A stretch of 64,000 nucleotides of DNA from Phycisphaeraceae bacterium (GCA_041736565.1 JBGSTK010000147.1:55473-119472), one strand, 5' to 3'. Counted from the first letter of the stretch, positions 12,973-29,452 are shown. Notes: generated by a model from the letters alone, not told the origin. Program-made: numbers and translations.

Positions 12973-13743
12973 TCAATGTGCTTCGAGCGTGCCGACTTCG
13001 ATGTCCAACTCATCACGTCGCTGGAGCCGATCCACCTGGCCGTCCTTGATCCACAGCACGCGGTCGGAGTTGGCCAGCATCTTGTGGTCATGCGTGGCGG
13101 TGATGACCGTCACGCCGGTCTCAGTCGAGAGGGCTTTGAGCAGGTTGATGATGTCGCCGCCGGTTTTGAAGTCGAGGTTAGCCGTCGGCTCATCGGCCAG
13201 AAGAATGGCCGGCTCATTGACCAGAGCGCGGGCGATGGCCACGCGTTGCTGCTGCCCACCCGAGAGTTCATCGGGGCGGTGAGTAACGCGGTTGCCCAAG
13301 CCGACCTGCTCCAACACCTTCATGGCCTGCGCCTCGGCATCGACTTCGCTAAGACCCGCAAAAACCGCGGGCAGCGCGACGTTGCGAAGCGCGGTGAGTG
13401 AGGGAATGAGGTTGTATGCCTGGAAGATGTAGCCGATGTAGTTGCACCGCACGAACGCCAATTGACTGGATGTCAGCTTGGTCAGTTCCAACGGGCCGAT
13501 GCTCACGCCGCCTTTGGTCGGGTGATCCAGCGCACCGACGATATTAAAGAGCGTGGATTTGCCTGATCCCGACGGGCCCATGATCGAGAGGTATTCGCCT
13601 CGGAAAATGTCGAGGGTGACATCACGGAGGGCATAGACCTCGCCGTGCTTGATCTTGTAGACCTTCGACACGTTCTTGACGCCGATGAGCTTGGCGCCCA
13701 GCGGGATGAGGTCCTTCATGGAGTTGGCTTGCGGTTGAGGCAT
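12973..13743 (-). CDS. ABC transporter ATP-binding protein (MacB/LolD/FtsE-like)
   Basis: Walker A GPSGSGKST, signature LSGGQQQRVAIARAL and Walker B ILLADEPTANLD. Confidence 0.9.
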   Translation of the reverse strand: MPQPQANSMKDLIPLGAKLIGVKNVSKVYKIKHGEVYALRDVTLDIFRGEYLSIMGPSGSGKSTLFNIVGALDHPTKGGVSIGPLELTKLTSSQLAFVRCNYIGYIFQAYNLIPSLTALRNVALPAVFAGLSEVDAEAQAMKVLEQVGLGNRVTHRPDELSGGQQQRVAIARALVNEPAILLADEPTANLDFKTGGDIINLLKALSTETGVTVITATHDHKMLANSDRVLWIKDGQVDRLQRRDELDIEVGTLEAH

Positions 13744-13795
13744 TGGCGTGAGGTTTCATAATGCGGCCAAGGCCGCGGTTGATCGAGGTCGGGGG

Positions 13796-15922
13796 TCAGA
13801 ACGGCAACTTGAAGACGGCTTTACTCAGGAACGTGAAGCCGATGGAAAGCGTCCCGATGAGGCCCATGCCGCAGGAGAACCCGGCGAAGACCACGGGAAT
13901 GTACTGTCGCCACTTGAGTCCCAGGCGTTTCTGGAAGTAGAAGCGTCCGATGAGTGCGCCGATGAACTGGATGATGATCGAGTGCGGTTCGCTCTGTCCC
14001 AGTCCGCGAACAATTCCGTAGACCAGGAACGTCGGCCAACCCAGCCAACTCATGCAGGTGAACGCAACGGTGCCCAAGCCGAAGCCCAAGCCGACGTAAA
14101 GCGGTCGGAACGCCTTTTCAAAGAGCGAGTAGCCGCCCAGGGTGGACGAGAACACGACCGACTGATTCTCAGCCTGTAATTCCCACATCACCTGTGCGTA
14201 GGGATACTGCGGCCCGGGCACCTGCCCCAGACTCCAGATGAACTGCGCAAAGAGCAGACTCGACAAAATAATGATGGGCGTGAGGATGATCTCGGCTTTC
14301 CAGATCGACCAGAAGCTCGTGCCGGTCAGTTCAGCCTGGCGATAGAAGACGGTCATGCGGCCATAGTCGTGGATTGGCACGGGCAGGAACCACACTGCCA
14401 CGCCCTGATAGCCCGAGAGGATAAACCCGGCTTCCTTTACAAAGGGGATCGACACCACCTGCCCGGCGATGCCTTCGAGTCGCGCGGTGGCGTAGCTGAT
14501 CAGTGGCGTATAGACAAAACCGTAGAAGAACATAACCACCAGCACGCCGGTTTCATTCCATCCGATGAGCGTCATCGACACGGTGATGTAGAGCAGCGTT
14601 GAGACGAGATAGGTGACGATGATCCAGCGGGTCTTGATGTCGCCGCGACCCTCGGGCGTGGTGACCATGCCCTCGGCCTGGACCTCGTCGTTCTTCTTCA
14701 TCTTCCGGAGCTTCAACATGCCTTTGACGACGGCAACGATGCCCGTCACGGCGATGGCCAACGAGATGCCGATGGTGAAGCTGAAGTAGAAATCGACGTT
14801 GTTCTTGAAGATGGTGGCGACTGTGCTGTCGCCGACGTTCCAAGCTTTGAGGACGGTACCGCCTTCAAAACCCAGCCAGGCGACGGCGGGGAAATTGACG
14901 TTGTAGAGAATCGGGTTGAGGATGAAGGTGATGATGAGCCCGATGAACGAGCCGACCATGGCGAAGAACGGCAGGACCATGCCCACCAGGAGTTGCCCGA
15001 GGTCGAAGGTCAGGCCCGTCGCCACCGCGTGAAGCCATTCGCCAGTCTGCGGGGTGAAATCCACCCAGGGAATGGGCAGGATGATGATCGGCTTTCCGAG
15101 CATGGCGCCGGTGATGGTGGGGATACCGAGGTAGACGACGCCAAAGAGCAATCCGATGACGCCGCCGACGGAGAAGACACGCCAGCGCCACGAGCCCTGG
15201 GTAATTTCGTTGCCATCGTCATCGACATTCTTGCGTGATTCCTCTGCCTGTTCTTCGGACAATGCGAGGATGCCCTGGGCGCCGACGGGAGCCATGGGGA
15301 ACGGGAGTCGTTCGACGTCGCTGGCAAGTCGGAAAAGTCCGTAGCCCAGGATCATGTTGTCGATGCGGGCCATGAGCGTTGAGAAGACAACGAGCCCCAG
15401 TGCCGGGAGCCACTCCGCGCGGAACAATGATCGCACCGCCAGTACGTCGGGGTCGTTGGGGGCGTACCAGTGGGGGAGGAACTCGGCGATGCCGTGAGCT
15501 TGGGCGGCATTGGACTGGACGTAGAACTGGTTCCAGAGGATGCCCGAGAAGGGCGAGGCCATTGCGGCAGCCGCCAGATAGAAGAGTGTGAAGATTTCCG
15601 CGTTTTTGAGGGTCTTGTTGGCGCGACGTGCAACTTCGATGAAGAGGATGACCGTCACCCATTTGGCGGCTTCACTCATCGAGCCGGCATGCCCGACTAG
15701 CAGACTCATATACATCGTGCCGGGCACCATCAGCACTGCCACGAACAACGCTCCGAAGAACGCCGGCCATGTGAAGCCGTTCTCGAAAGTCGAGGGCGGC
15801 TGCATCAGGCTGCGGAACTCCTCGAGTTCACGATCCTGTCGCTTGGTGCGGATCGACGCCCCGATATTCGCCGGTTCGCGGCGATGAGGCGGGGTCGCAT
15901 TGGGATTCAGTTCATCAGCCAC
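13796..15922 (-). CDS. Large polytopic membrane protein, possibly related to OPT-type transporters
   Basis: 708 aa with more than 12 hydrophobic segments. ERLPFPMAPVGAQGILAL resembles the OPT-family FPSG motif region. Family assignment is tentative. Confidence 0.7.
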   Translation of the reverse strand: MADELNPNATPPHRREPANIGASIRTKRQDRELEEFRSLMQPPSTFENGFTWPAFFGALFVAVLMVPGTMYMSLLVGHAGSMSEAAKWVTVILFIEVARRANKTLKNAEIFTLFYLAAAAMASPFSGILWNQFYVQSNAAQAHGIAEFLPHWYAPNDPDVLAVRSLFRAEWLPALGLVVFSTLMARIDNMILGYGLFRLASDVERLPFPMAPVGAQGILALSEEQAEESRKNVDDDGNEITQGSWRWRVFSVGGVIGLLFGVVYLGIPTITGAMLGKPIIILPIPWVDFTPQTGEWLHAVATGLTFDLGQLLVGMVLPFFAMVGSFIGLIITFILNPILYNVNFPAVAWLGFEGGTVLKAWNVGDSTVATIFKNNVDFYFSFTIGISLAIAVTGIVAVVKGMLKLRKMKKNDEVQAEGMVTTPEGRGDIKTRWIIVTYLVSTLLYITVSMTLIGWNETGVLVVMFFYGFVYTPLISYATARLEGIAGQVVSIPFVKEAGFILSGYQGVAVWFLPVPIHDYGRMTVFYRQAELTGTSFWSIWKAEIILTPIIILSSLLFAQFIWSLGQVPGPQYPYAQVMWELQAENQSVVFSSTLGGYSLFEKAFRPLYVGLGFGLGTVAFTCMSWLGWPTFLVYGIVRGLGQSEPHSIIIQFIGALIGRFYFQKRLGLKWRQYIPVVFAGFSCGMGLIGTLSIGFTFLSKAVFKLPF

Positions 15923-16072: not shown

Positions 16073-19000
16073 CTAGAAGGACCGGTCGGGCTTCTTCTGT
16101 TCGCTTGCCCCTTGGCCCGGGACTTCTCCGCCCAATTCCTGCAACGTGCGCAGGCGATACTCTTCGATGACTTCCGCTGAAAGCGTGCGCCACAGCAGGA
16201 ACTGCTTGCGCAGGTCGCTCACAAAGACGCGGTTGGCACGGTACCAGTCACCGCTGGCGCCGCTGTCACGATTGGTTTCGATGAAGACTTCGTCAACGCC
16301 GGGGATCTCGGATGGCCGGGCTGTGAGTGCAAATCCCTGAGTCACGCCAAGGTCAAACGGCGCCAAGGCCATGTGGGCATTGAGGCGGAGGTGCCCCGTG
16401 TCATCTTCACGCAGGATGCTGACATTCTGCGCAGCGAAGTGGCCGAGGCCAGCATCGTTGTGAGCGCGGAAGTGTTCAGCCAGGAAGCTCATCACGCCCG
16501 TGATGTCATAAGCACTGACGGTGAAGGGGAAGGTCATGGCCAGCTTGTCGCCTTCGGGCTTAGGCAGTCGCCATGTTCGCGCCAGGCCGGGGTTGGCACT
16601 CTTGGATGCGCGAAGGGCCGGGTAAATGGCGCTGATGAGCACCGTGGACATGACCAGGCCGATGGCAAAGAGCGAGTTGGTGGAGGAGTAGTTGATGTCG
16701 GGCGCCTGGATGACGTTCCACTTGGCCAGTTGTGCTGCAGCCAGCGCCACGGTTTGGGCCAGCAATTGCCCGCCCATGCCGCCGACCACCGCGTAAACCG
16801 CAGCCTCGGCGAAGAACAGGAACCCGACGTGCGCCGGGGCCAGGCCCAGAGCGCTGAAGGTGTAAATCTCTTTCTGGCGATCACTGATGGAGCCCAGCAG
16901 TGTGCCGAAAATGATCAGACCGCCGAGCACCACCGGCACGACAAGCGCTGTGCCGCCCGAGAAGTCCGTGAGGGTCGTGAAGATCATGCGTTGCACGCCC
17001 TGAGGCCCGCGCGCCCAGACGGGCACGTTGACGAGTTGGGCGATGCTCTGACCCATGACCATCGGGTCGCCCTGGGGCGGATAGACGTTTACAACATAGA
17101 GACCGCCACCGGCTTCCCGCACCAGTTCATTGGATGCGATGGCCAACTGGTCCGGCGAGAGATGGACGAAGTCACGCTCGATCTCGTCAGCCTCGACGCT
17201 GTCAGCCTGAATGTTGGCCTCGGTCAGATCAGACGCCGCCGCCAGTGGATTGACCGGCGCGATGGTGCGCCCGTCGAGTTGCTCAAGGCGTTGGAGGTTG
17301 TTGGCCTCGATCACGCCGGCGAACACAGCCTGCTTGCCGTTGATGAGAATCGGGTCGCCGACCTGAAGTTCGAGCTTGTCGCGGATAATCGCTGGGAGAT
17401 AAACCCCGCGATTGTCCAAGGCCTTGACCTTCACTTCGATGTCGTCGCCCGCCACCGCCAGCGCCAACTGGGGCCACTGGCGGAACTCCTGGCTTGACAC
17501 GCCCAGGATGCCTTCGATCCACAGCGCTCGAGGCGAGTCTGTTCGCGCCACGCTGAAGGGGTCCTCATCGGCAGCGGGGCGAATGAGCCACCACTGCGGC
17601 GCCATGTACCCGCCTGGCCCTGCCGTTTCACCCAGAAGCGTCAGGAGGTGAGGCGACAGCGCCTTGTAGTTAAGGTGCCTGACCATGACCGAACCGGCCA
17701 CGTCCTGGTTGACCGGGCCTTCATAGATGCTGCGAACGCCCACGCGATTGCTCACCGAGGCAAAGCACAGGATGGTGAAGGTGAGCATGACCACGGTCAC
17801 AGCCGTGAGGAAGGTTCGGGTAGGTCGGCGGCGCATGGTGCTCATGCCCATCGAAACCGCAGCCAGCAACGTGCCCATCCGCGAGACTTCCGCCTGATGC
17901 ACCGCGGTGCCCTGGCCCTGCATGGCGGCCAGCTCAACTTTGAACTTCCGCACGATGATGTAGATCACCAGACTCGAGAGCAGCAGAATGGTAAACGCCA
18001 GGAAAATGATGATCGGCGTCGAGGCGATGGCAAAGCCCGGGTGCATGAAAAACAGCAGGCCGAAGGTGATGAGAAACACGATGGCAAAGCCCGCGAGCCG
18101 CTGGTAAATCGTGGTGGCCGCTACCAGCAGACGCTCCATGGCAAAGGCAAAGGGGATGGCCAGAAGCAACAGCACGACGATGGCATACACCAGGTCGTCC
18201 ATGGATTGCCGCAGCGGGTTATAGACAGCGCGGGACAGCGCCTCGCTCTGCTTGAAGGCAGCTTGCCGACGCGTCACCCAGTTGTCACCCAGACTGCTGG
18301 TGTCGCCTGCGGATATGGCCGCGGCATGCTCAGCGTTGAGACGATCGGCCTGCTCCAGGCGTTGCTTGGCACGGCTGTGGAGCACCTCCAGATCGGTACT
18401 CGTCACGCCACGCTCGCGCAGTGCCTTAAGCCGCGATTCGTTGAGCTGCCAGAGGTCCGGGGCAGTGTAGCTGTCAAGCAGGGGCGGGAAGCGGATGAGC
18501 GTGTCGAGGATGCCCCGCCCGAAGGGATCATGCTCGACATCTTGAATATTGAGCAGCACCGGGCCCTTGTCCTGGAAGATCTTGATGCGTTCCGGGGGCA
18601 CCAGCGTCGAGGTGTAGAAGAAGGTGAAGTCGTTCTGTTGGCCGTAGAGACTTCGGGCTTCGGGATAGGCGGCATCCGCCGCAGCCGAGAGCACCTTGAG
18701 GGTCGCGGGCGTCGGAGTGTTGACCAGCGATGTGACGACGCTGTGGCCTCGGGCTGGGAAAAGATTGGCTCGCAGCGTTCCGGTGAAGCCGGCACCGATG
18801 GTAATGCCGTTGCTGATGGCGCTGACCTCACCGCGGTAGTCATCCATCAAGGCGCCCAGGAGCATGGTGGCGGAAAAGACGTCCTTGCGTACACCCACGA
18901 GCGGGAATCGCCCGTTGCCATCGACCACTTCCATCACGAAGGGGTCAAAATCTGCCAGGGTTCCGGGTCGCTCGAGGAACTGCCAGTTGTGGGTCTTGAT

Positions 19001-21079
19001 GTTCGTGGCCTTCGGAGCCACAGCCAGCAGCGCGCCGCTGGCGGGGCGATCTTCCGAAAGGCTGCCTGTGATCTGCAGCCCGATATAGTCGCCTGAAGCG
19101 CGCTCGCCGCTCCAACCGGGCCGTTTGGTGCCTGCCAGATTCGAAAAGACGGGGACCAGCGATGTCTCGGGCACATCAGCGGCGTTGGCGATCAGCACGC
19201 GTGCTTCGAGGCTCTGTGCCAGAATGTGACGCCACCGCAGGTTGGCCACCGTGTCAGCCGGATGACCATCGCGCGGGCGACCGTCGAATGCCGTCGCCAG
19301 GGTGACGTTGTGAATCTTGAAAGCACCGGCGACCGTGCCGCTGACGACGAACTTGCCGGGCACGTAGCGGCTGGCCAGCGTGGGATCGGCGAGCCTCTCC
19401 GGCACCAACCCGGTCAAGCCGTCGCTGCGGGCAGCCGCGGCACGGAAGGCCGTGAGCACCCGCGTGTAATAGCCCGGCGAATCGCCCTTGGTGTTCTTGT
19501 CACCGTAGGACCGCTCCGTCCACTCGCCTGCGATCACGCCCCAACCCGGCCCGCGATCCGACAGGTTGTAACTCACATGCAGAACCACCGCAGCCTTACC
19601 CAGACGCTTGCGCAACCCCAAGCCCTGTTGAGCGGAGCGCAGCAGGCCATCAAGTTCCCTGGCGCGATTTTCCAGTCGGGCGATGGCAGCACGCGACAAT
19701 TGGCTGAAGATCTCCTCGCTTACCTCCGTCACTTTGCGGTCATGCAGCGATCGCCGAGCGTTGTCCCAGGCCCTGATCTTGACCATCAATTCCGCCTTGA
19801 GCTCTCCAAGTCGCTTGGCCTCGTCGCCGACGTTATCGAGGTCCCGAGCCGTCAAGCGTGCTTCAACTGCCGCCTGGTTGATGTCGGAGCGAATGAACTC
19901 CGCCTGGCGCTCCAGAAGATCAAGCAACTTGGTGCGGGTGGCGATGCTCGCATCCTCAGGCATCGGCGGCATACGCTTGAGGAGATCGAGCATCTCCGTG
20001 ACGAAGGCCGACTCGGTCTGATATCCCGTCTGACGCGACTCGATATCCGCGACCGATGCGTTAATCACGTCATAGAGGTAGCGGGCGCCCTGGTGGTAAC
20101 GAGCCTGGTTATCCACGAAGGTGATGAGAACATCGCGGCGGGGACGATTAGTCTGGATGTATTTAGCTGTCTGAAGCAGTGCCGCGATGTTGGCTGCGCC
20201 CCTGGCACCGGCCACACCGTGGGGCACGGTCCCGAAGCTATCGTAGTTGACGGCCAGTACCACCACTTCCGGCAGGCCTTTGGTATCCCCCTTTGGAAAC
20301 ACCGGGTCCGATCCGGGCAGGTACGCCAGGATATTCCGCCCCACAGCCTGGCGCCATGCGACGGCTGAGGTGACCGTGGCGTTGACGTTGCCGGGCTTGC
20401 GGAAGTCGAACGCTTTCTGTGCCTCAGGTGAAGCGTAGAGGCGCACCAGGTTCATCGGCACCGTGGCGTGCTTGGGCTGCATCGGCGTGGCGTCGCTACC
20501 CAGGAAGATCACGGCCTTGGCACCCAGGGCAAACGCCTGCTGCCAGGCTTCACCGCTGTCATATTCAAGCACGACGATCGCATCGCGAGTATCGCGTTGG
20601 GCGTATTCCTCCAGCGTACCTCGACCGACATAAACCAGCGGGCCTGTCAGACCACCCTTGGGCGTCGAGGGGGTGATGATGATATTGGGGCGCATCGGCA
20701 GCAAGCTGATCTTCTGACCGCCCACCTCGATGTGGCTCTCGTTGATGACCGTCTGGACCACGGGAATTTCCAGCGACATCACCGATTCGATGCCCATGTC
20801 AAAGAGGCGCTTTTCGATGTAGGCGGCTGCAGCCTGATTCTCGGGCGTGCCCGACAATCGGTGAGCACCGGCGGTCAGGGCCTTGAGGTCATCCTCAAAC
20901 TGTCTGGCGGCGGCGGCATCGATCGCAGCGGCCGCATCGGCGGAACCGGCGCCAGCCGTCTGCCCCTGCAACGCGGCGGGAACGAACATCAGCATCACCA
21001 CCGCCAAAACCGTCGCCAGCAGCGGCCAGGCCCAGCAGCGGGAAGACACAGGCAATATTTGGGATCGCAGCGGGATCAT
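16073..21079 (-). CDS. Giant (1669-aa) FtsX-family ABC permease fused to an N-terminal extracytoplasmic M28-peptidase/PA-like domain
   Basis: The ATG at 21079 overlaps the upstream ATPase stop (ATGA). N-terminal signal/TM segment. PA-like segment GPLVYVGRGTLEEYAQRDTRDAIVVLEYDSGEAWQQAFALGAKAVIF. M28-like segment GRNILAYLPG...VVVLAVNYDS...GARGAANIAALLQTAKYI. Two FtsX modules (MRRRPTRTFLTAVTVVMLTFTILCF...; ...IYTFSALGLAPAHVGFLFFAEAAVYAVVGGMGG...YPALRASKSANP), followed by a C-terminal domain of about 250 aa. Confidence 0.8.
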   Translation of the reverse strand: MIPLRSQILPVSSRCWAWPLLATVLAVVMLMFVPAALQGQTAGAGSADAAAAIDAAAARQFEDDLKALTAGAHRLSGTPENQAAAAYIEKRLFDMGIESVMSLEIPVVQTVINESHIEVGGQKISLLPMRPNIIITPSTPKGGLTGPLVYVGRGTLEEYAQRDTRDAIVVLEYDSGEAWQQAFALGAKAVIFLGSDATPMQPKHATVPMNLVRLYASPEAQKAFDFRKPGNVNATVTSAVAWRQAVGRNILAYLPGSDPVFPKGDTKGLPEVVVLAVNYDSFGTVPHGVAGARGAANIAALLQTAKYIQTNRPRRDVLITFVDNQARYHQGARYLYDVINASVADIESRQTGYQTESAFVTEMLDLLKRMPPMPEDASIATRTKLLDLLERQAEFIRSDINQAAVEARLTARDLDNVGDEAKRLGELKAELMVKIRAWDNARRSLHDRKVTEVSEEIFSQLSRAAIARLENRARELDGLLRSAQQGLGLRKRLGKAAVVLHVSYNLSDRGPGWGVIAGEWTERSYGDKNTKGDSPGYYTRVLTAFRAAAARSDGLTGLVPERLADPTLASRYVPGKFVVSGTVAGAFKIHNVTLATAFDGRPRDGHPADTVANLRWRHILAQSLEARVLIANAADVPETSLVPVFSNLAGTKRPGWSGERASGDYIGLQITGSLSEDRPASGALLAVAPKATNIKTHNWQFLERPGTLADFDPFVMEVVDGNGRFPLVGVRKDVFSATMLLGALMDDYRGEVSAISNGITIGAGFTGTLRANLFPARGHSVVTSLVNTPTPATLKVLSAAADAAYPEARSLYGQQNDFTFFYTSTLVPPERIKIFQDKGPVLLNIQDVEHDPFGRGILDTLIRFPPLLDSYTAPDLWQLNESRLKALRERGVTSTDLEVLHSRAKQRLEQADRLNAEHAAAISAGDTSSLGDNWVTRRQAAFKQSEALSRAVYNPLRQSMDDLVYAIVVLLLLAIPFAFAMERLLVAATTIYQRLAGFAIVFLITFGLLFFMHPGFAIASTPIIIFLAFTILLLSSLVIYIIVRKFKVELAAMQGQGTAVHQAEVSRMGTLLAAVSMGMSTMRRRPTRTFLTAVTVVMLTFTILCFASVSNRVGVRSIYEGPVNQDVAGSVMVRHLNYKALSPHLLTLLGETAGPGGYMAPQWWLIRPAADEDPFSVARTDSPRALWIEGILGVSSQEFRQWPQLALAVAGDDIEVKVKALDNRGVYLPAIIRDKLELQVGDPILINGKQAVFAGVIEANNLQRLEQLDGRTIAPVNPLAAASDLTEANIQADSVEADEIERDFVHLSPDQLAIASNELVREAGGGLYVVNVYPPQGDPMVMGQSIAQLVNVPVWARGPQGVQRMIFTTLTDFSGGTALVVPVVLGGLIIFGTLLGSISDRQKEIYTFSALGLAPAHVGFLFFAEAAVYAVVGGMGGQLLAQTVALAAAQLAKWNVIQAPDINYSSTNSLFAIGLVMSTVLISAIYPALRASKSANPGLARTWRLPKPEGDKLAMTFPFTVSAYDITGVMSFLAEHFRAHNDAGLGHFAAQNVSILREDDTGHLRLNAHMALAPFDLGVTQGFALTARPSEIPGVDEVFIETNRDSGASGDWYRANRVFVSDLRKQFLLWRTLSAEVIEEYRLRTLQELGGEVPGQGASEQKKPDRSF

Positions 21080-21873
21080 TCTTCCATGCCTCCGATGCGG
21101 CCGACCTTGACAGTGACGTTGGCGCGTTCCTCGAGACGCTCGACACGACCATCGCGAATCCACATGATGCGGTCGCAGATGTTGAGCAGACGGTGGTCGT
21201 GCGTGGAGCAGACGATCGTCACGCCCCGTTCCTTGTTGATGCGTTGAAGGATATTCAAGATTTCCTGGCCGGTTTTGAGGTCGAGGTTGGCGGTGGGTTC
21301 GTCACAAAGCAGGATGCGAGGCAGGTTGCACAGCGAGCGGGCGATCGCCACACGCTGCTGCTGGCCGCCTGACATTTCGATGGGTCGGTGGCTCCAACGG
21401 TCGTCGAGCGCGACCAGCTTCAGCAGTTCCATGCCGCGCTTTCGCGCCGCCTCCGGAGGCACCCCGGCAAACGCCATGGGAACGGTCACGTTCTCCAAGG
21501 CCGTCATGTAGCGAATGAGGTTGTAGCTCTGGAAGATGTAGCCGATTTTGCGGCAGCGAAGGAATGCCAGTTCCACTGCCGAAAGCTGTGCCACGTCCAC
21601 TTCGTCAATGAGGATGCGTCCCTTGGTGGGCGAGTCCAACGCACCGATCATGTTGAAGAAGGTGGACTTGCCGCTGCCCGACGGGCCCAGCACGCTAATG
21701 AACTCGCCACGGTAGATCGACGCATCGACGCCGCGAATCGCGTAGGTCGTGGTCTCCCCCATGCCGTAGCTCTTTTCGAGGTTGATCGTGCGAATGATGA
21801 CCGCCTTGTCGGGCGGTGCATCATTCAAAGGCTTCGAGGTTGTGGTGGCGGTTTGGGTCACTTCACTTCTCAA
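21076..21873 (-). CDS. ABC transporter ATP-binding protein (MacB/LolD-like)
   Basis: GPSGSGKSTFFN, MSGGQQQRVAIARSL and ILLCDEPTANLD. TTG or GTG start, exact start uncertain. Confidence 0.9.
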   Translation of the reverse strand: MRSEVTQTATTTSKPLNDAPPDKAVIIRTINLEKSYGMGETTTYAIRGVDASIYRGEFISVLGPSGSGKSTFFNMIGALDSPTKGRILIDEVDVAQLSAVELAFLRCRKIGYIFQSYNLIRYMTALENVTVPMAFAGVPPEAARKRGMELLKLVALDDRWSHRPIEMSGGQQQRVAIARSLCNLPRILLCDEPTANLDLKTGQEILNILQRINKERGVTIVCSTHDHRLLNICDRIMWIRDGRVERLEERANVTVKVGRIGGMEE

Positions 21874-21965: not shown

Positions 21966-23435
21966 CTACTCGACGCGCATGGCTTCCATGGGCGCCAGTC
22001 GTGAGGCGACCCACGCCGGCCAGACCGCGGCGATGACCGCCAGGATGATGCCAGCAATGAGCGAGATCACCCCGCCGATCACCAGTTGACCCAGGACGTC
22101 ACCGGCTCCGAAGATCAATCCGCCGTACTCCACGAGACCGCGCAGCACCGCCAGGACCAATCCCAGCACGACGCCCACGATCCCGCCGAAGAGACCTTGG
22201 AGCATGGCTTCAAAGACGAACATCAACATGACGAAGCCGTCCATGGCACCCAGGCACTTCATGGTGGCGATTTCACTGAAACGCTCGGTGACGCTCATGA
22301 GCATGGCATTGGCCACGCCCACGGCACAGACCAGAAACGAAAGGCCGATGAGATACATAGTGGAGGTGGTGAGGCCCAGGAAGCCCGGGTCTTCACTCGG
22401 CACGGTGCCGCCCAAAGCATTCTGGAGCCGTTGATCCCTGCGGAAATGCCCAGCGACTTCCACCATCCGCTGAGGTTCGAGCGGATTGCCGCCAGCCTTG
22501 CGAATCGTCTCCGCCAGCCAGGCCGCATCGCTCTCGTCGCCGATCCAGTAAAGCACCGCAGCAGTGTTGACCAGCGCCACGGGCGAACCGAGTTTGCGTG
22601 CCACGAGGTTCTTGATTTCCCGGGGATCGATGTCCCGGCCCAGACGCTCGATGTCACGTTGCACGGCTGCGAGTGACGCCAGCGCGGGCAACTCGCCGGG
22701 CTCGACGACGAACCCGCTGTCACGGAGGGTCGCCTCCAACGTCGCTGGTGGCTCGGACATCAGCAGCAGCGGCGGCACGTTGCCGACGTCCTGGCGAACT
22801 TTCACGATGGCTTGACGGTGCCCCTGCTGAACGCGGCGGATCACATCCATGAGCCGGGGAACCTGGACTTGGACCAATTGCTCAAACGCCGCCTGATCGC
22901 CATCGAGCACATGCAGTTTGAGTTGACCCAGGCGATCGTTGAAAAGCTGGAACTCGCGCGGGGCGTTCAACGACGCAGCCACCGCCAACGTGTCCTGCCC
23001 GCCCGTAAGCACCGCACGAGAGGCGGGGATGAGCGTGTCAAAGTAAGCGCCCAGTTCGGCGACGGCTTTGGCGTCCTGTCGCGATTGAGCCAGCGCGGCG
23101 TCGTCGAGATTGGCCCAGCGTTGATACTCCGCGTGCTGTCGGGGCATGTCGCGGTGCAGATTTCGCATGACCACGGAATCAGTATCCGCGGCGGTGAGTC
23201 GGCCGACCCATTGACCAAGGGCACGACTCGGCGCCAGTTCGTCGTAGGCTTGCTGCGTGACGTGCGACGCCAGGAGGCTGTGCGCCAGCACCTGCACCAT
23301 GAAGGCCACGGCCAGCGCCAGGATCGAGACGGTCACCGCTGAGCGGAACATGCGATAGCCCATACCCGCCATGGCCAACTGCAAGCAGCGCCGGGCTCCG
23401 AGTTTGACCTGATCCTGAACAATGATGGGCTTCAC
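21966..23435 (-). CDS. FtsX-family ABC transporter permease with a large (about 300-aa) extracytoplasmic domain
   Basis: N-terminal TM1 (FRSAVTVSILALAVAFMV). C-terminal FtsX domain SVTERFSEIATMKCLGAMDGFVMLMFVFEAMLQGLFGG...WVASRLAPMEAMR. GTG start preceded by aaggaaaa. Confidence 0.85.
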   Translation of the reverse strand: MKPIIVQDQVKLGARRCLQLAMAGMGYRMFRSAVTVSILALAVAFMVQVLAHSLLASHVTQQAYDELAPSRALGQWVGRLTAADTDSVVMRNLHRDMPRQHAEYQRWANLDDAALAQSRQDAKAVAELGAYFDTLIPASRAVLTGGQDTLAVAASLNAPREFQLFNDRLGQLKLHVLDGDQAAFEQLVQVQVPRLMDVIRRVQQGHRQAIVKVRQDVGNVPPLLLMSEPPATLEATLRDSGFVVEPGELPALASLAAVQRDIERLGRDIDPREIKNLVARKLGSPVALVNTAAVLYWIGDESDAAWLAETIRKAGGNPLEPQRMVEVAGHFRRDQRLQNALGGTVPSEDPGFLGLTTSTMYLIGLSFLVCAVGVANAMLMSVTERFSEIATMKCLGAMDGFVMLMFVFEAMLQGLFGGIVGVVLGLVLAVLRGLVEYGGLIFGAGDVLGQLVIGGVISLIAGIILAVIAAVWPAWVASRLAPMEAMRVE

Positions 23436-23503: not shown

Positions 23504-23953
23504 CTACGAACCGGCAGCTGCCTCCAGTCGAGCACGCTCCAGTTTCCGTCGCCGACGGCGCGATGGCCCGCCACGACGAGGCGGCGCCTCCGCCGGTCCG
23601 ACGATGACGATCAACCCCCGCTGCGTCAAGTCGCGGAGGAACTGCGTCACGCTCATCCTCGCTTCATGAAATCGCACATGGTGGGCCGCGGCAAAACGCT
23701 CAACGATGCCTTCCACATTGGTCTGCCCGTCACAGAGCTCCCACACAGCCTCACCCAAGGCATCAAACTCCACGCCACGCTCCGACCGAACAGGCAGGAA
23801 GAACGAGAACGGCCGCCGGTGGAACAAGCCCTTCCGCAGTGCCACGTATGCCACCAGCTTCCCGCCCTTTCGCACGACCCGCGCCGCCTCGTTGCGCAAC
23901 GGCACTGCATCGAGGATTTCACCGGGGCCGAGGTTGGAGGGCGTAACGGTCAT
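23504..23953 (-). CDS. PqqD-family (RiPP-recognition-element-like) protein with an Arg-rich C-terminal tail
   Basis: EFDALGEAVWELCDGQTNVEGIVERFAAAHHVRFHEARMSVTQFLRDLTQRGLIVI fits the PqqD pattern (LN..g..iW.l.dG..t..ei...l...y.v....a..dv..fl..L...gli). Confidence 0.55.
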   Translation of the reverse strand: MTVTPSNLGPGEILDAVPLRNEAARVVRKGGKLVAYVALRKGLFHRRPFSFFLPVRSERGVEFDALGEAVWELCDGQTNVEGIVERFAAAHHVRFHEARMSVTQFLRDLTQRGLIVIVGPAEAPPRRGGPSRRRRRKLERARLEAAAGS

Positions 23954-23977: not shown

Positions 23978-24832
23978 CTATCCACAGCGCACGGCGAATT
24001 CCGTGGGCTCCACGGGGTCCTTGGCGTGCGACAACGTCGTGATCTGATAAACGGCGTGATCCACGGGGCAGTGCCAAACCAGGTCGCGTCGTTGCCGGGC
24101 ACGGCCGATGATTTTGGTGAAGCGAGTTGTCGGTTCCAGGCTCTGACCCAAGCAAGCCTGGTGGCCCCGGTGGCGAAGCATTTCGACCCGATCAGGGGCT
24201 GCGGAAAGGTCCTTTTCCAGCCACGCGTCGGGCTGACCATCATACCACATGTCCGTCGCGCCCAGACGGCGGCAAACCGCCTGCCGTCGCTCATTTTCAA
24301 AGGTAAATCGCGCTTGCCCGGGCTGAATCTTGGCACGCTGCAGCGTCCACCCGCTCGGTGCCACCACATCCAAACCAAACGCACGCCAGGGCGTTGGCGA
24401 ATCCTCTTTAAGGTCCAGCACCTCGAAGCCCGTCAGCACCAAGTCCTCGACCTCCTGCTCTACCCCCAGCGGCCAAGGCAGCACCAGTTCGATGAGCCGC
24501 TTCAGGCTCGGCTCGTAGCGCAAGGCGCGGGTGATGCTGTTCTCATCGCGCGTCCGCCGCAGCGAGCGCCAGCCGTTGACTCGATCCAATTCCGTCACCC
24601 GGGCGTTGGGGCGTTCCTGGGCATCGCGACTCTTGTAGTCGGCGATCATCTGTCCGAGGTCCGCGGCACGTTGCAGCGTTCGCCAAGTCAGTTGCAGACG
24701 CTGGCGGCGACGGTCGATCATCACCAGCGAGCCGGTTTTCGGAGAGACGGCATGGCGCACGATGTCCCACTCGGCGGGCGTTGTCAGCCGCATGCCAAGC
24801 CAGACAATTTCTTGTGTCAGCGCCTCTGCCAT
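23978..24832 (-). CDS. Hypothetical protein (284 aa), probably cytoplasmic
   Basis: Tightly packed between neighbouring genes (gaps of 21-24 nt). Protein-like composition. No family recognised. Confidence 0.65.
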   Translation of the reverse strand: MAEALTQEIVWLGMRLTTPAEWDIVRHAVSPKTGSLVMIDRRRQRLQLTWRTLQRAADLGQMIADYKSRDAQERPNARVTELDRVNGWRSLRRTRDENSITRALRYEPSLKRLIELVLPWPLGVEQEVEDLVLTGFEVLDLKEDSPTPWRAFGLDVVAPSGWTLQRAKIQPGQARFTFENERRQAVCRRLGATDMWYDGQPDAWLEKDLSAAPDRVEMLRHRGHQACLGQSLEPTTRFTKIIGRARQRRDLVWHCPVDHAVYQITTLSHAKDPVEPTEFAVRCG

Positions 24833-24853: not shown

Positions 24854-27346
24854 CTAGCCCGGGAGGATCGAATAGTTGGGCGGACTTTCACCCATATTGA
24901 AATAGTAGATTGCACCGATGGTCATCCACACCAGCCCGGCGAAAAGCTCACCGGCGATGATGCCGACCATCACCGGTTTGATGCCGTTGAATCCCTTGGC
25001 ACCGGTCAACCGCACAACTGCGGCCTTGATGGCCCAGCCGACGAGGAATGACGCCGCGAATTGGGCAGCCGGGTAGGAGCCCCAGAATACGAAAATCACC
25101 GGGTGCAGTGGCCACCAGGGCAGTCGCAGCCGGGCCACGGTGAATACAAAGACCAGCCCGACTCCCAATGCAAACCAAGGCCATAGTTCGGTAATCCGGA
25201 TCTGTCCCAGCCGATCCAGCCCCGACACCTGGCTGGCGCTTTCCAGGGTGCCCGCCGACGCCATCTGCCCCAATTGCTTGGACAAGGTGTCAAACGGCAT
25301 GGTCGAAACGCTGTTGGACATCCACAGGTCCTGAATATTCATGCCGTAGCGGTACTGCAATGACAGTCCCACAAAAATCGTCGTCGCCAGACCCACCAGC
25401 ACCATGATGCCAATGAGCGGTGCGATCCGTTGCGGTGCGGCGTTGCCCGTGCGTTCGCCGATCTGGAGTCCATTGACCAGGAAGGGCATGATCGCTTCGC
25501 GCGGGTCGATGACGAGCATGACACTGGCAATCGCCATGATGACAAAGGCTGTTGGACCGATGGCCTCGATGCCAATGAACCCCGCGATCATCGCCATGGG
25601 CATCCACCCGGCCTGCACAAAGAAGACACCTGTCTCAGCATTGACGCGGGCGATGACGGTGAAGATAAGCAGCACGATCAGGATCAGCGGCACACCCAGC
25701 ATCCAATCCAGACCCTGGGCCGCCAGCAGCGCCACAGCCCCGACAAACGCCAGCAGCGCCAGTCGACTGCCCCAGACGGAGTACCCGGGGGTTTCGAGCC
25801 GCTTGGGCAGACCCACGGTGGCTTTTATCACGTCCCAGTAATGGCGTCTCCCGGTATAGAGAATCACCATCCCGATACCCACCCAACCACCGAAAAACAG
25901 GAAGTTCTGGTTCTCGGCTCCCGACCAGTCATGCCGCAACGCCACACCGTTGGCCACGAGAAGGGATCCGAAAAACACCCAGATAAACAACGATAAGCCC
26001 AGCGACAGCGAAACTTCCGTCGTCAGGAAGAACGCGAACGCCACCACACTCAGATATATCCTGGGCGAAAAGAGGCCCCAGTTCGAGCTGACTTTGGCAG
26101 CATTGGGGAAAATAGTTCGCAGCGGGCCGAAGTCAAAGGACAGCGGGATTGACAGGAAGAAGCTGGGGTACCAGGCCTTGAGGCCGTTAACCAGGTGAAG
26201 GACCGACACCGCCAGTACGCCGTACCAGAACAGGCGGTTTCTCGCGATATCGGGCAGCCAGTGACCCTTGGTTCGCTGGGCCGACTCCTCGACGAAACGG
26301 GCGATTGGGTACGCCAGCAGTTCGCGACGGGACCATTGTGGATGGACCACCATCACGATACCCAGCGATGCCAGGCCGATGCACGCGGCAATACCTCCCC
26401 ACAAAACGATGGCCGGTGCCCATGCACCCCAAGGCACCTGCATGGGCGGCAACTGCTGCAACCACGTGACGCCCTCGCCCTTAGGCGGGCTTACGCCACC
26501 TTGCATCAGAGGATCAACCACTGCCGTGTCGCCCCGACCACCCAGCAGCAGCACACCATCGCCCTGGGGTTGAGGCAAGATGAACTCGGGAAGTGCCGCA
26601 ACCATCGCAGCCCGGTTGATGCGATGGATGTCATCAGTCGTCAACCGCCGATCGGTTGTCGTCGCCAAATCAGCCTCGGGCTGCCGCAACGTCAGGCCAG
26701 CAAACTCCGGGCGGGGTGAACCGACGCCACGAGCCGGATCGATTTCGAGATAGAGATCGGGACGATTGAGTACCTCGTTAAGGCTGTTGACGATGGTGCG
26801 ATGATGGTCCAGAGGCACATGCCCGGCAGTGACGTTCTGTCGCAATGACCGCTGGGTTTCCAGCGGGAGCACCGACCAGACTCGCCCCGCCAGAGTCGGC
26901 TGGCCAAAGCCCTCGCCCGCCTTGACCAGCGTCGTGGCCAAGCCGTTCCAATTCCGCACGTGGCCCTCGCCCAGCAGTGCCGATCCGCCCGGAAGATAGG
27001 AAAGGACGTTGGCCGCCTGCCAGTTGGCCTTGGTCTTGATGTGGTGGGCCGGCATGGCGAGGTTGCCGGTGAAGTATCGGTAGTAGCCCGACCCCGGCCA
27101 GCCGCAGACCGCCAAACCCAGAGCCGCGATAATCGCCAACTCCGAGGCCTTGAGTGCCAGCCGCGAACTGATCATCGCCAGCAGGGGGTTGAGGACGATC
27201 ATCAACAACACCAGCACGCCGAAAATACCAATGGGCAACAGGTTGCCCACCAGCATCGTCTGACGGATGATCTGGTCGTTGAAATACGTCGCGCTTGCGA
27301 CGAAAAGCCCCAGAAGCACACCGATGATAACCGCGCGAATTGTCAC
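24854..27346 (-). CDS. Large polytopic membrane protein of unknown family
   Basis: More than 14 hydrophobic segments interrupted by a soluble loop of about 200 aa. I prefer the GTG at 27346 (VTIRAVIIGVLLGLFVASATYFND). The ORF could extend to 27508, but that extension is Arg-rich and looks non-coding. Confidence 0.7.
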   Translation of the reverse strand: MTIRAVIIGVLLGLFVASATYFNDQIIRQTMLVGNLLPIGIFGVLVLLMIVLNPLLAMISSRLALKASELAIIAALGLAVCGWPGSGYYRYFTGNLAMPAHHIKTKANWQAANVLSYLPGGSALLGEGHVRNWNGLATTLVKAGEGFGQPTLAGRVWSVLPLETQRSLRQNVTAGHVPLDHHRTIVNSLNEVLNRPDLYLEIDPARGVGSPRPEFAGLTLRQPEADLATTTDRRLTTDDIHRINRAAMVAALPEFILPQPQGDGVLLLGGRGDTAVVDPLMQGGVSPPKGEGVTWLQQLPPMQVPWGAWAPAIVLWGGIAACIGLASLGIVMVVHPQWSRRELLAYPIARFVEESAQRTKGHWLPDIARNRLFWYGVLAVSVLHLVNGLKAWYPSFFLSIPLSFDFGPLRTIFPNAAKVSSNWGLFSPRIYLSVVAFAFFLTTEVSLSLGLSLFIWVFFGSLLVANGVALRHDWSGAENQNFLFFGGWVGIGMVILYTGRRHYWDVIKATVGLPKRLETPGYSVWGSRLALLAFVGAVALLAAQGLDWMLGVPLILIVLLIFTVIARVNAETGVFFVQAGWMPMAMIAGFIGIEAIGPTAFVIMAIASVMLVIDPREAIMPFLVNGLQIGERTGNAAPQRIAPLIGIMVLVGLATTIFVGLSLQYRYGMNIQDLWMSNSVSTMPFDTLSKQLGQMASAGTLESASQVSGLDRLGQIRITELWPWFALGVGLVFVFTVARLRLPWWPLHPVIFVFWGSYPAAQFAASFLVGWAIKAAVVRLTGAKGFNGIKPVMVGIIAGELFAGLVWMTIGAIYYFNMGESPPNYSILPG

Positions 27347-27634
27347 GTCGTTTTCAGCCTCGGGGCGGGGTTGGTGGGGCCACGATAACGATGCGTGGCG
27401 CGACAGCCTAACGGGGGCGACACACGATAACCGATCATCGCGTCTTTTGGAAATCTGACACCGGCGGATCTCCCCCACGGATCGCTGGTGGCCCGCTAGT
27501 CGCCCCACGCCCCCGCCATCGCCTTGCCAATCTAACCCTCTCGATTTGCCCAGCCGTTAATCCGGGCTAAGCTAAAGGGCGCACTCCTGCGTCGTCCATG
27601 CAGGGGGGAAACGAACTTTCACACGGAGATTCCC

Positions 27635-29452
27635 ATGAACAGACTTCCCAAACCTTGGTTTCGAGCCTGCCTGCTGGCGCTTTGTCTCATCGCCTCGCCC
27701 CTGCTGACGACGATTTCCCGCGCTGACGAAGCAGCCTTGAAAAATGCGTTGGACCAGGTGGCCTCCGATGCCCCCATCGCTGTCATCGTGCCCAACCTCA
27801 AAGCCTTCAGCCAGCGCATGGCGACGCTCAGCAAACAACTCGGCCTGCCCAATCCGGACTTGGCCGATCTGGCGGGCTCCATGCAGCGAAAGACGGGGCT
27901 CGAAGGGGCGCTCCGCGAAGACGGCCCCATGCTCATCGTGATCACCGCCCTTCCCGCCGAGCGCGCCCAGGGCGCACCGCGCGAGTCCGGCGAAGCCAAC
28001 GTCGTCATGATCATGCCCGTGACCGACTACAGCAAGGTCACCGCCAGCCTCCGCGGTGCCAGCACGCGTGAGGGCGTAACCGAGGGCGTAACCACCGAAG
28101 GTGAAACCGTCTACGTCAAGCAATTGGGCAACTTCGCCGTGACAGGCCCCGTCCGCGCTACCGTGGCCGGCTATCAGGCTGGCGGCGCGGGCGCCAACTG
28201 GCTTACGGCTTCGGGCAAACTCGGGGGCCAGTACCTCGACAAGAGCCAGGCAGCCGTCTTCTTCAACATGCCCGTCATGCGCCAGCGCCTTCTCAGCGGG
28301 ATCGACAAGGGCATGGCCCAGATGGAAAAACAGATGGGCAGCGCCCCCGCCAACACCGCCGACCAAGCCGCCATGGCCAAGGTCATGATGGCCGCCTACG
28401 CCGATGTGGCCAAGAACTTCGTGCGCGATGCGGAGATGGCCGTCGTCACCCTCGACGCCAGCGAGATGGGCGTGGCGCTGACCGGTGCCGCCCAGTTCAC
28501 CGCCGGGAGCAAACTGGCGGGCTACACCGCCAAGAGCTCCGCAGCAGCGCCCCTATTTAACCAACTGCCCAACCGACCTTACATCATGGCATGGTCCGCC
28601 AACGCCGATGGTCTGGACCTCAAAGCCCTGGTCACCGATGTCGTCAAAGACCTGCCCGACAACGCTGGCCCCATGGTCGCCCTGATCAAGAGCAAGCTCC
28701 CGCTGTTGTCGGATGTCACCAGCTACGCCCAGGCGATCTATGTCCCAGCCAATGTCCAGCCCATGGCGGGCGGCGGATTGATCCAAGCCGCCAGCGTCAT
28801 CACCACACGTGACCCAGCAGCATTCAAAGTCGCCGTTCAAGACTACCTCGCCGCCATGGGCACCATGAGCCAGCCCGGCGGCGTGACCATCAAGAGCACC
28901 TACACCAAGGACGCCATGCAGATTAACGGCGTCAACGTGGACCGCTACGCCGTCGACTACCAGATGCCGCCCGAAGCCATGCGTGGCAACCCCATGGCAC
29001 CGATGATGGCGATGATGGGCCTTAACGCTCAACAGGGCTTCATCGCGCAACAGGGCGACAAACTGGTCATGACCAGTGTGTCGGATGTCGAGCTGATGAA
29101 GGCAGCCTTGGAAGCAGCCAAGAGCGACAAGGGCCTGGGGCAGGACAAACTCATCGGCCAGGTCCGCACCGAGGCACTACCCAAGGATGCCGCGGCCGAG
29201 GCTTATCTGAACATGGCGGGCGTGGCGCAGATGGCCAACATGTTCGGCATGATGTTCGGTATGCCGCCGATCAATGCACCGGCCAACCTCCCGCCCGTCG
29301 CCTGGGGCATGTCCGGCCAGGACAACGGCGCTGCCCTGCGAATGTACGTACCCGTCGCGGTGATGACCTTCGTCCGCGACACCGCCATGCAATTCCAGCA
29401 GCCCCGCCCCGGCATGCAGCCCGGCACCGCCCCCCCGCCGGATTTCAACTGA
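27635..29452 (+). CDS. Secreted protein with Met-rich C-terminal motifs, function unknown
   Basis: Signal peptide MNRLPKPWFRACLLALCLIASPLLTTISRADE. C-terminal MAPMMAMMGLN and MANMFGMMFGMPP. Divergent from the ABC/FtsX cluster. Confidence 0.75.
   Translation: MNRLPKPWFRACLLALCLIASPLLTTISRADEAALKNALDQVASDAPIAVIVPNLKAFSQRMATLSKQLGLPNPDLADLAGSMQRKTGLEGALREDGPMLIVITALPAERAQGAPRESGEANVVMIMPVTDYSKVTASLRGASTREGVTEGVTTEGETVYVKQLGNFAVTGPVRATVAGYQAGGAGANWLTASGKLGGQYLDKSQAAVFFNMPVMRQRLLSGIDKGMAQMEKQMGSAPANTADQAAMAKVMMAAYADVAKNFVRDAEMAVVTLDASEMGVALTGAAQFTAGSKLAGYTAKSSAAAPLFNQLPNRPYIMAWSANADGLDLKALVTDVVKDLPDNAGPMVALIKSKLPLLSDVTSYAQAIYVPANVQPMAGGGLIQAASVITTRDPAAFKVAVQDYLAAMGTMSQPGGVTIKSTYTKDAMQINGVNVDRYAVDYQMPPEAMRGNPMAPMMAMMGLNAQQGFIAQQGDKLVMTSVSDVELMKAALEAAKSDKGLGQDKLIGQVRTEALPKDAAAEAYLNMAGVAQMANMFGMMFGMPPINAPANLPPVAWGMSGQDNGAALRMYVPVAVMTFVRDTAMQFQQPRPGMQPGTAPPPDFN

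Follow-up and report, generated by a model that had tools for sequence, protein, structure and literature searches.

A 64,000-nucleotide (nt) stretch of DNA from a Phycisphaeraceae bacterium (GCA_041736565.1, JBGSTK010000147.1:55473-119472; the whole stretch is called the window below) carries eight minus-strand genes in positions 12973-27346 that constitute a conserved set and not a chance juxtaposition; the arrangement is far beyond chance, because it recurs in 50 of the 52 informative related loci (below). The genes encode two ATP-binding cassette (ABC) ATPases, an FtsX-type permease of 489 amino acids (aa), a giant membrane protein whose second half is also of FtsX type, an OPT-superfamily-like membrane protein, a DUF6785 membrane protein, a PqqD-like protein and a 284-aa protein. 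From these sequences we rate the set as a proposed Type VII (MacB/FtsX-type) ABC machine with an unprecedented partner set. Its genes, the parts of the giant protein and the terminator, in the direction of transcription and with the basis of each call, are as follows:

24854..27346, minus strand: membrane protein with DUF6785 and DUF6784, 830 aa, GTG start
23978..24832, minus strand: 284-aa protein, predicted tandem PsbP/Mog1p-like (AlphaFold2 model and Foldseek)
23504..23953, minus strand: PqqD-like (RRE-type, where RRE is a peptide recognition element) protein, 149 aa (Pfam PqqD, 4e-11)
21966..23435, minus strand: FtsX-type permease, 489 aa, four transmembrane (TM) helices (Pfam FtsX, 4e-12)
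21076..21873, minus strand: ABC ATPase 1, LolD/MacB/DarD type (ABC_tran, 1e-30)
16073..21079, minus strand: giant membrane protein, 1668 aa (topology; Pfam FtsX, 2e-8; weak M28)
18209..20953, minus strand: giant ectodomain 1, aa 43-957 (AlphaFold2 model and Foldseek)
17933..18208, minus strand: giant TM bundle 1, aa 958-1049, three TM helices (hydropathy, hhalign)
16607..17821, minus strand: giant FtsX unit, aa 1087-1491 (hhalign, Pfam, PDB matches)
16076..16606, minus strand: giant cytoplasmic C-terminal domain, aa 1492-1668 (homologue alignment)
13796..15922, minus strand: OPT-superfamily-like membrane protein, 708 aa (family-level Pfam OPT)
12973..13743, minus strand: ABC ATPase 2, LolD/MacB/DarD type (ABC_tran, 1e-32)
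12888..12925, minus strand: intrinsic terminator after the ATPase 2 gene (read from the sequence)

Related loci were collected by scanning one genome per species, which gave 401 relatives of the OPT-like protein, and the best 80 of these 401 loci were analysed; the genes in them were tallied by open reading frame (ORF) calls and phmmer, with the 52 loci that have at least 9.5 kb of upstream flank as the denominator. The 80 loci belong to Planctomycetota (46), Verrucomicrobiota (10), Kiritimatiellia (9), Myxococcota/'delta' (8), Lentisphaerae/Victivallales (3), Chitinivibrionales (2), Anaerolineales (1) and an unclassified lineage (1). The order FtsX-ABC-giant-OPT on a single strand was found in 50/52 loci, and loci with this set span Planctomycetota, Verrucomicrobiota, Kiritimatiellia, Lentisphaerae, Chitinivibrionales and Myxococcota. 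A PqqD gene is present in 49/52 loci and a detectable homologue of the 284-aa protein in 39/52, and these two genes are adjacent wherever both were found; the OPT-like gene always stands directly after the giant gene, and an ABC gene follows the OPT-like gene in 71/80 loci. DUF6785 is present in 37/52 loci; it lies upstream of the 284-aa gene in 25, between the PqqD and FtsX genes in 8 (in Kiritimatiellia, Verrucomicrobiota and one Planctomycetota locus) and downstream in 4. The gene order of the window was recovered in loci reached through homologues of the 284-aa protein and, through homologues of the OPT-like protein, in a Verrucomicrobia isolate, a Chitinivibrionales metagenome-assembled genome (MAG) and a complete Phycisphaeraceae chromosome. 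Median identities to the window proteins across loci are 74% for ATPase 1, 66% for ATPase 2, 58% for the OPT-like protein, 44% for PqqD, 43% for the giant protein, 39% for FtsX, 35% for DUF6785 and 31% for the 284-aa protein. No other protein family recurs in more than six related loci, and among small ORFs of 18-110 aa inside the cluster or up to 1.5 kb away, none is shared by more than 3 of ~80 loci. An earlier note on this DNA had named chance juxtaposition of separate transporters as one way in which its grouping of these genes could fail; when gene order was compared among genomes, it proved to be kept across phyla.

A distant Planctomycetes MAG (locus L090) has all eight families, verified by phmmer, in the changed order ABC-FtsX-ABC-giant-OPT-DUF6785-unknown-PqqD; the full set has thus been kept after reshuffling, which is strong evidence for a functional unit. 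In L090 the two ATPase genes have 4-nt overlaps with the starts of permease genes, one with that of the giant gene and the other with that of the FtsX gene, and the second ATPase gene precedes the FtsX gene, unlike in the window. These overlaps suggest which ATPase belongs to which permease, and the ATGA coupling of the ATPase 1 and giant genes, present both in the window and in L090, supports the pairing. At another distant locus (L089) the giant-OPT pair stands alone, and this pair is the tightest link in the set.

The layout of the cluster in the window is as the earlier note had it, that is, eight tightly packed minus-strand genes with one ATGA overlap and a terminator after the second ATPase gene. 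All eight ORFs are found at the coordinates listed above, and an exact-sequence look-up showed that independent public gene calls agree residue for residue for six of the eight proteins (OPT-like, 708 aa; giant, 1668 aa; FtsX, 489 aa; PqqD, 149 aa; unknown, 284 aa; DUF6785, 830 aa) as well as for a methionine-rich neighbour (605 aa, below), and that the public records of both ATPases carry different start calls. The DUF6785 gene starts with GTG at 27346. From the ATPase 2 gene upwards the gaps are 52, 150, −4, 92, 68, 24 and 21 nt (thus 21-150 nt apart from the overlap), the negative value being the overlap of the ATPase 1 and giant genes as ATGA at 21079-21076 on the minus strand. The terminator, read directly from the minus-strand sequence, has a 10-bp GC-rich stem (GCGGCCCTCG / CGAGGGCCGC, 12925-12897) with a 9-nt loop and a TTTTT run at 12892-12888; it is absent from the automatic terminator scan, which allows loops of up to 8 nt, because its loop is 9 nt long. 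The G+C content is ~61-63% throughout the window, with no compositional break at the cluster, and an Rfam search of 12500-30000 gave no match that reaches its gathering score, so that a riboswitch or leader reading is unsupported.

The 150-nt gap between the giant and OPT-like genes contains a 7-nt tandem repeat at 16020-16049 (CTCTAAT ×4.3 on the plus strand, GAGATTA on the coding strand); neither the repeat nor this intergenic region is conserved among the related loci. Two related Phycisphaeraceae MAGs have in the same gap a conserved stretch of ~100 nt (L010:9728-9850 and L015:5953-6060), which shows up as matching pseudo-ORFs on either strand, is missing from the window and may be a lineage-specific regulatory element.

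Both ATPases are of the MacB type, as had been thought. ATPase 2 matches ABC_tran (1e-32), LolD (2e-66) and the MacB N-domain (8e-65) in Pfam and NCBIfam, and ATPase 1 matches the same three models at 1e-30, 6e-63 and 2e-58; the Walker A, signature, Walker B-Glu and H-loop motifs, read from the translations, are canonical in both, and the two proteins are 50% identical to one another. Their best NCBIfam matches are of the LolD/MacB/DarD kind, with the DevA type matched as well, and both score under every equivalog cutoff: the LolD scores of 224 and 212 bits fall short of the 308-bit cutoff, so that the LolCDE equivalog level is not reached, and the matches to DarD, the darobactin exporter subunit (3e-64 and 9e-60), are below its 375-bit cutoff. 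The 489-aa protein is, likewise as described, an FtsX permease with a large periplasmic domain: it matches Pfam FtsX (PF02687, 4e-12), and hydropathy places TM1 at 28-59, a periplasmic region of ~290 aa at 60-351 and TM2-4 at 352-482. Its closest PDB match is a Streptococcus pneumoniae MacB-like permease (5xu1_M, 3e-15), followed by MacB, LolE, YtrF, LolF and FtsX; all these matches are confined to the TM region, and the periplasmic domain has no family match.

The giant protein had been described as a 1669-aa double-FtsX protein with an M28/PA-like ectodomain. The gene is real (1668 aa) and its second half is FtsX, but the doubling is topological only; similarly, the M28/PA fold stands, but its zinc ligands are lost and it is catalytically dead. 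Hydropathy gives TM1 at aa 13-42, ectodomain 1 at 43-957 (915 aa), three TM helices at 958-1049 (TM bundle 1), TM5 at 1087-1111, ectodomain 2 at 1112-1371 (260 aa), TM6-8 at 1372-1491 and a cytoplasmic C-terminal domain at 1492-1668 (177 aa), and its 72 homologues are 1483-1913 aa long. The AlphaFold2 model of ectodomain 1, built with 66 homologues (predicted local distance difference test score, pLDDT, 93.9; predicted template modelling score, pTM, 0.93), has Foldseek matches to 2ek8 (2e-17), BSAP, PaAP, the transferrin receptor and GCPII. In it four long helices, a coiled-coil insertion, split the M28 fold, and a beta-rich domain and then a helical stalk come after it. The zinc-ligand motifs that read SHHDS...GANDDASG in 2ek8 read VNYDS...GVAGARGA in the window's giant protein, and the consensus of the giant family, AxxDSFG...PGARGAAN...DNQAR, is without the zinc ligands; the loss of the ligands is therefore ancestral. 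Ectodomain 1 is thus, according to the model, a PA-domain M28 aminopeptidase fold, and the M28 head is predicted to be a pseudo-peptidase or binding domain because the zinc ligands are gone. Dead M28 receptors are known, such as the transferrin receptor and also nicastrin, which is another catalytically dead M28-fold receptor. Like the transferrin receptor, the giant protein has a PA-domain M28 fold, a membrane anchor and lost metal ligands; it differs in being bacterial, in having its fold interrupted by a coiled coil and in being fused to an ABC-coupled permease.

In its second half the giant protein has an FtsX unit that hhalign aligns with the 489-aa permease at 98.1% probability (E 1e-13). 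Pfam FtsX matches aa 1406-1521 of it (2e-8; the Pfam M28 match of the giant is weak), and its PDB matches are 5xu1_M, LolF, YtrF and MacB. A motif read by eye just before TM5, RRRPTRTFLT, is of a type that we take to be typical of FtsX-family N-termini, and one giant homologue has a MacB_PCD domain (PF12704); ectodomain 2 of the window protein has no family match. TM bundle 1 has no detectable FtsX similarity: hhalign gives it a probability of 0.6% with the FtsX region of the giant itself and of 0.1% with the 489-aa permease. The ADOP model matches only aa 1423-1523, at 27 bits versus a 622-bit cutoff, and the NCBIfam lolCE score is 41 bits versus a 362-bit cutoff. An arrangement of two homologous FtsX units in one chain, as in ADOP/YbbP-like proteins, is not supported by the hhalign values and the ADOP score.

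The C-terminal domain is the best-conserved part of the giant protein: the last 185 aa of 36 homologues have a mean column identity of 56% and 41 invariant positions; the domain has no PDB match, and the 36 homologues gave no Pfam match for it. Upstream of it, aa 960-1541 match the PADLOC profile PDLC01991, 'CARF_m8--CARF_LolE_TM' (4e-50), and the core also matches PDLC01990, 'CARF_Beta-galactosidase_LolE_TM' (1791 positions, 1e-20). The giant shares with the CARF_LolE_TM families a core made of the three-TM bundle, TM5, periplasmic domain 2 and the FtsX TM helices, so that TM bundle 1 lies inside the PDLC01991 match; the ~1800-position profile of the beta-galactosidase family suggests a large head on the same core. 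Here the C-terminal domain differs, since the match covers only profile positions 541-599 and not 600-810, which would be the CARF part; without a match of the C-terminal domain to the rest of the profile, the shared part is the membrane core. The cytoplasmic module appears exchangeable between lineages, and these profile matches hint at a possible larger superfamily in which giant FtsX-type proteins exchange their periplasmic heads and their cytoplasmic sensor domains. As to a CARF domain in the giant protein itself, the PADLOC similarity is restricted to the membrane core. No CRISPR or defence gene is linked to the cluster, and a defence system was rejected because PADLOC gave only generic ATPase similarity and the LolE core.

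The OPT-like assignment of the 708-aa protein holds at the family level, where 13 of 16 close homologues match Pfam OPT (PF03169, best E 2e-10), but not for the window protein itself, which has no Pfam OPT match at E ≤ 1. It has more than 2600 homologues with 55-79% identity across phyla, some of which are named 'peptide transporter' by NCBI; no PDB relative was found by sequence, and a search for plasmid carriage of the gene gave no match. The protein is like OPT transporters in being polytopic and ~700 aa long, and differs in that its subfamily is unusually conserved, always after the giant gene and usually before an ABC ATPase gene; we know of no such giant/ABC gene context for the OPT family. 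One Phycisphaeraceae contig, CBDCBB010000010.1 (loci L029 and L034), has a full cluster and also a second OPT-like paralogue (58% identity) without the other members, and so the OPT-like family can exist outside the module. The other polytopic protein, of about 830 aa as previously reported, is a DUF6785 (7e-71) and DUF6784 (2e-18) protein by Pfam, with a loop of ~220 aa after the first TM cluster and no PDB relative by sequence. Paralogy of the OPT-like and DUF6785 proteins was rejected: there is no BLASTP relation between them, their hhalign probability is 1%, and they share only a short E-x-L-x-F/Y-P-x-A motif.

The 284-aa gene had been entered as an unknown; the gene call is sound and the protein has no Pfam or NCBIfam match and no TM segment, but a fold can now be proposed. 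Its AlphaFold2 model (12 homologues, pLDDT 87, pTM 0.77) has two tandem alpha-beta sandwich domains, and the Foldseek matches in the PDB are PsbP (8e-5), BT_1490, Mog1p, the immunity protein Tsi3, the Eag-type chaperone SciW of type VI secretion, and PA94, with no enzyme fold among them; in a library of viral structures the model matched only phage lipoproteins of the same general fold. The PsbP/Mog1/DUF1795 fold is a protein-binding fold and not an enzyme fold, and the 284-aa protein is, on this model, predicted to be a tandem, cytoplasmic PsbP/Mog1/DUF1795 binding module. Each of its halves has the alpha-beta sandwich of these proteins; it differs from them in being duplicated and cytoplasmic, in having no sequence-level match and in being tied to PqqD and an ABC system.

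An exhaustive profile search found 987 representatives of the 284-aa family at E ≤ 1e-3 (333 at E ≤ 1e-30), and all five tested members of 422-445 aa have a C-terminal PqqD domain. By the Rosetta-stone argument, such fusions suggest that the 284-aa and PqqD proteins act as one unit. The separate 149-aa protein is PqqD-like, as first described (Pfam PqqD, PF05402, 4e-11), has an Arg-rich tail, and scores far under the cutoffs of all specific NCBIfam PqqD subfamilies (for example 27 versus 80 bits for the lasso-peptide PqqD). It is like other PqqD/RRE proteins in being small, cytoplasmic and paired or sometimes fused with a partner, and differs in that the partner is the tandem PsbP/Mog1-like module and not a radical S-adenosylmethionine (SAM) enzyme, protease or cyclase. 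On a Phycisphaera mikurensis-like contig (L003:915-2293) a 284-aa homologue and PqqD form an isolated pair amid unrelated genes; this genome may have a split module, or the two proteins may act independently there.

All characterised Type VII systems (MacAB-TolC, LolCDE, FtsEX-EnvC and YbbAP-TesA), those of Escherichia coli included, use cytoplasmic ATP hydrolysis to perform work in the periplasm (PMC12646458; PMC5985334). The cluster resembles them in its LolD/MacB-type ATPases with intact motifs and in the four-TM FtsX unit of the 489-aa protein and of the giant's second half, whose TM1 and TM2 enclose a large periplasmic domain, and it resembles LolC/LolE in having two different FtsX-unit proteins. 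It differs from them in having no linked MacA-like adaptor, outer-membrane factor, LolA-like protein or EnvC/TesA-like partner; in its two distinct ATPases; in the pseudo-M28/PA ectodomain, extra three-TM bundle and conserved cytoplasmic domain that are fused to one of its permeases; and in its obligate linkage to OPT-like, DUF6785, PqqD and tandem PsbP-like proteins. The curated models (NCBIfam equivalogs, PADLOC systems and Pfam) cover only generic domains and DUFs and not the combination, every equivalog-level NCBIfam score falls far short of its cutoff, and the literature searched holds no description of the cluster, of its combination or of DUF6785/DUF6784. The earlier note's view that no described system fits is thus upheld, the profile searches placing only ABC_tran, FtsX, PqqD, two DUFs and a weak OPT.

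The observed parts list, folds, loss of catalytic residues, co-inheritance of the genes and fusion of the 284-aa and PqqD proteins lead us to favour, with a probability of about 0.35, a model in which the eight genes encode one inner-membrane Type VII machine that handles peptide-like cargo and works from the inside out. We infer its assembly, cargo and direction of action as follows. ATPase 1 would dock on the giant protein and ATPase 2 on the 489-aa permease, and the result would be two homodimeric engines or else a single heterodimeric transporter, asymmetric in the manner of LolC/LolE, because there are two FtsX-unit proteins and two ATPases and each ATPase gene is coupled to one permease gene. 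In the cytoplasm, the 284-aa/PqqD pair would bind either a peptide or a hydrophobic stretch of a protein that is exposed; the permease-like proteins would pass this cargo to the outer face of the membrane; and ATP hydrolysis would move the periplasmic ectodomains. Among these, the zinc-less M28/PA head on its helical stalk would hold or receive the cargo without catalysis, extracting it and letting it go on the periplasmic side. Three of the parts, the M28/PA head, the OPT-like protein and PqqD, have peptide-binding ancestry, and the cytoplasmic 284-aa/PqqD pair looks like a cargo receptor or chaperone. The inside-out logic appears to gain support from the homology of the giant's core to a PADLOC family that is named with a CARF sensor and from the C-terminal domain being the best-conserved part of the giant.

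Several observations weigh against this model. TM bundle 1 of the giant is not detectably FtsX, which bears on the stoichiometry of the complex; the window's own 708-aa protein lacks the Pfam OPT match that its relatives have; DUF6785 is not within the fetched flank in 15/52 loci; and the set can split, as in L003, with the 284-aa/PqqD pair alone, and in L089. No cargo or precursor gene is conserved nearby in the related loci, and no HlyD-type adaptor or outer-membrane factor, as a MacAB-TolC-type pump would have, is present among the eight proteins or their recurring neighbours. In addition, all characterised OPT transporters are, to our knowledge, importers, which fits uptake better than export.

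Uptake, which we consider unlikely, would reverse the direction: the M28/PA head would be a periplasmic receptor for peptide termini in an ATP-assisted capture, mechanotransmission would pass the peptide on to the OPT-like permease, whose gene comes directly after that of the giant, for import, and the 284-aa/PqqD pair would receive it in the cytoplasm. The head of the giant is a receptor-like pseudo-peptidase, and the transferrin receptor and GCPII use the M28/PA fold for ligand binding; the OPT-family signal among the OPT-like homologues points to importers, the giant-OPT adjacency is invariable even without the rest of the set, there is no membrane-fusion adaptor or outer-membrane factor of the efflux-pump kind, and the carriers belong mostly to lineages generally known as hydrolytic heterotrophs. 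However, import has no precedent among the characterised Type VII ABC systems (PMC12646458, PMC5985334), nutrient import does not usually involve a cytoplasmic chaperone-like pair of its own, and uptake gives the second FtsX protein and DUF6785 no explained role. We find it improbable that the set is instead an FtsEX-EnvC-like regulator of envelope remodelling, in which the giant would unite FtsX and its coiled-coil pseudo-peptidase partner in one chain, ATP-driven movement would expose the dead M28 domain, this domain would bind and activate a periplasmic hydrolase encoded elsewhere, and the permease-like proteins would recycle the products. EnvC has a degenerate LytM domain and a coiled coil. 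A pseudo-enzyme domain with a coiled-coil insertion on an FtsX-type transducer is parallel to it (FtsEX systems are listed in PMC12646458), SweC/SweD are a precedent for extra membrane cofactors of FtsEX (PMC6705773), and in the window a gene for an AmpG-like transporter of the major facilitator superfamily (MFS) and an AnmK gene adjoin the cluster. These peptidoglycan-recycling neighbours are not conserved with the cluster, though, and no hydrolase gene is linked to it; M28 is not a cell-wall hydrolase family, the NCBIfam FtsX and FtsE equivalog scores are far under cutoff, and the PqqD/PsbP-like pair is left without a role.

The remaining explanations turn on the peptide-binding parts or dispense with a common function. 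Sensing or detoxification of antimicrobial peptides, of the BceAB, Spr0694-0695 or MacB kind, would have the proteins clear the membrane surface of amphipathic peptides, take these up via the OPT-like protein and keep them sequestered in the cytoplasm; the peptide-binding ancestry of PqqD, the M28 head and OPT agrees with this, as does the best PDB match of the 489-aa permease, 5xu1_M, which has a link to peptide resistance. It is nevertheless very improbable, given that the high conservation of the ATPases and the OPT-like protein across phyla resembles housekeeping and not an arms race, that no two-component regulator is linked and that no plasmid carries the OPT-like gene. Even less credence can be given to a cluster for maturation and export of a ribosomally synthesised and post-translationally modified peptide (RiPP), with PqqD as the leader-peptide recognition element. 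Such a cluster would account for the PqqD/RRE domain and for ATPases that resemble DarD, though below its cutoff, but it was rejected for want of a precursor and enzymes: no radical SAM, YcaO, lasso or other modifying enzyme is present among the eight proteins or their conserved neighbours, no precursor-like small ORF in or around the cluster is conserved in the ~80 loci, and PqqD is far under the cutoffs of all specific RiPP PqqD subfamilies. Lastly, each part alone belongs to a common transporter superfamily, and independent transporters could have come together by chance; we give this almost no weight, since the set is linked in 50/52 loci of at least six lineages and is kept after shuffling, and since there are translational coupling and 284-aa/PqqD fusions.

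The genes around the cluster appear in the window as follows. Divergent from it, at 27635-29452 on the plus strand, is a gene for a 605-aa protein with an N-terminal signal-anchor-like segment, 6.9% methionine (42 Met) and methionine clusters (MAPMMAMMG and MFGMMFGM are examples); neither Pfam nor NCBIfam gave a match for it, and a strong terminator with a 12-bp hairpin follows at 29479-29506. Met-rich periplasmic proteins often bind copper. The divergent Met-rich gene of the earlier note is thus real, but it is not conserved with the cluster, and it was rejected as a ninth member since no related locus has a homologue. Beyond it lies a divergent pair, an MFS transporter gene at 29600-~30850 (minus strand) with a weak Acatn/AmpG-like signature and a gene for the anhydro-N-acetylmuramic acid kinase AnmK at 30918-32135 (plus strand, 4e-68), which looks like a peptidoglycan-recycling pair. 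The 594-aa minus-strand MFS ORF overlaps AnmK only through an over-long upstream extension, its MFS domain beginning at residue 212. On the other side, plus-strand genes for a 1397-aa SNF2-family helicase with a SWIM zinc finger (7778-11971) and, after it, for a short-chain dehydrogenase (11993-12862) run convergently towards the cluster's end; they seem to have nothing to do with the cluster.

Key processes of the envelope (lipoprotein sorting, control of cell-wall hydrolases, efflux and lipid extraction) are carried out by Type VII ABC transporters, and few partner sets are known for them. The cluster described here would be the ninth or so kind of such a set, and an unusual one, with a permease headed by a dead aminopeptidase, OPT-like and DUF6785 proteins and a PqqD/PsbP-like adaptor, conserved at up to 74% identity across phyla whose envelopes are poorly understood. 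It is a tentative proposal, and a doubtful one for now, that a MacB/FtsX mechanotransducer in physical contact with permeases of a secondary-transporter fold (OPT-like and DUF6785) and with an RRE-type cytoplasmic peptide receptor constitutes a new class of envelope machine, which would move or present a peptide or protein across the inner membrane in bacteria of the Planctomycetes-Verrucomicrobia-Chlamydiae (PVC) group, Myxococcota and Chitinivibrionales; if true, this would be the first PqqD/RRE domain that serves a transport machine instead of a peptide-modifying enzyme. Because there are cultured carriers, Verrucomicrobia bacterium LW23 and Phycisphaerales bacterium AB-hyl4, the question is directly testable. 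Solving it would assign a function to two Pfam DUFs and three unnamed domains, would test the action of RREs outside RiPP biosynthesis and may reveal a new envelope pathway in PVC bacteria.

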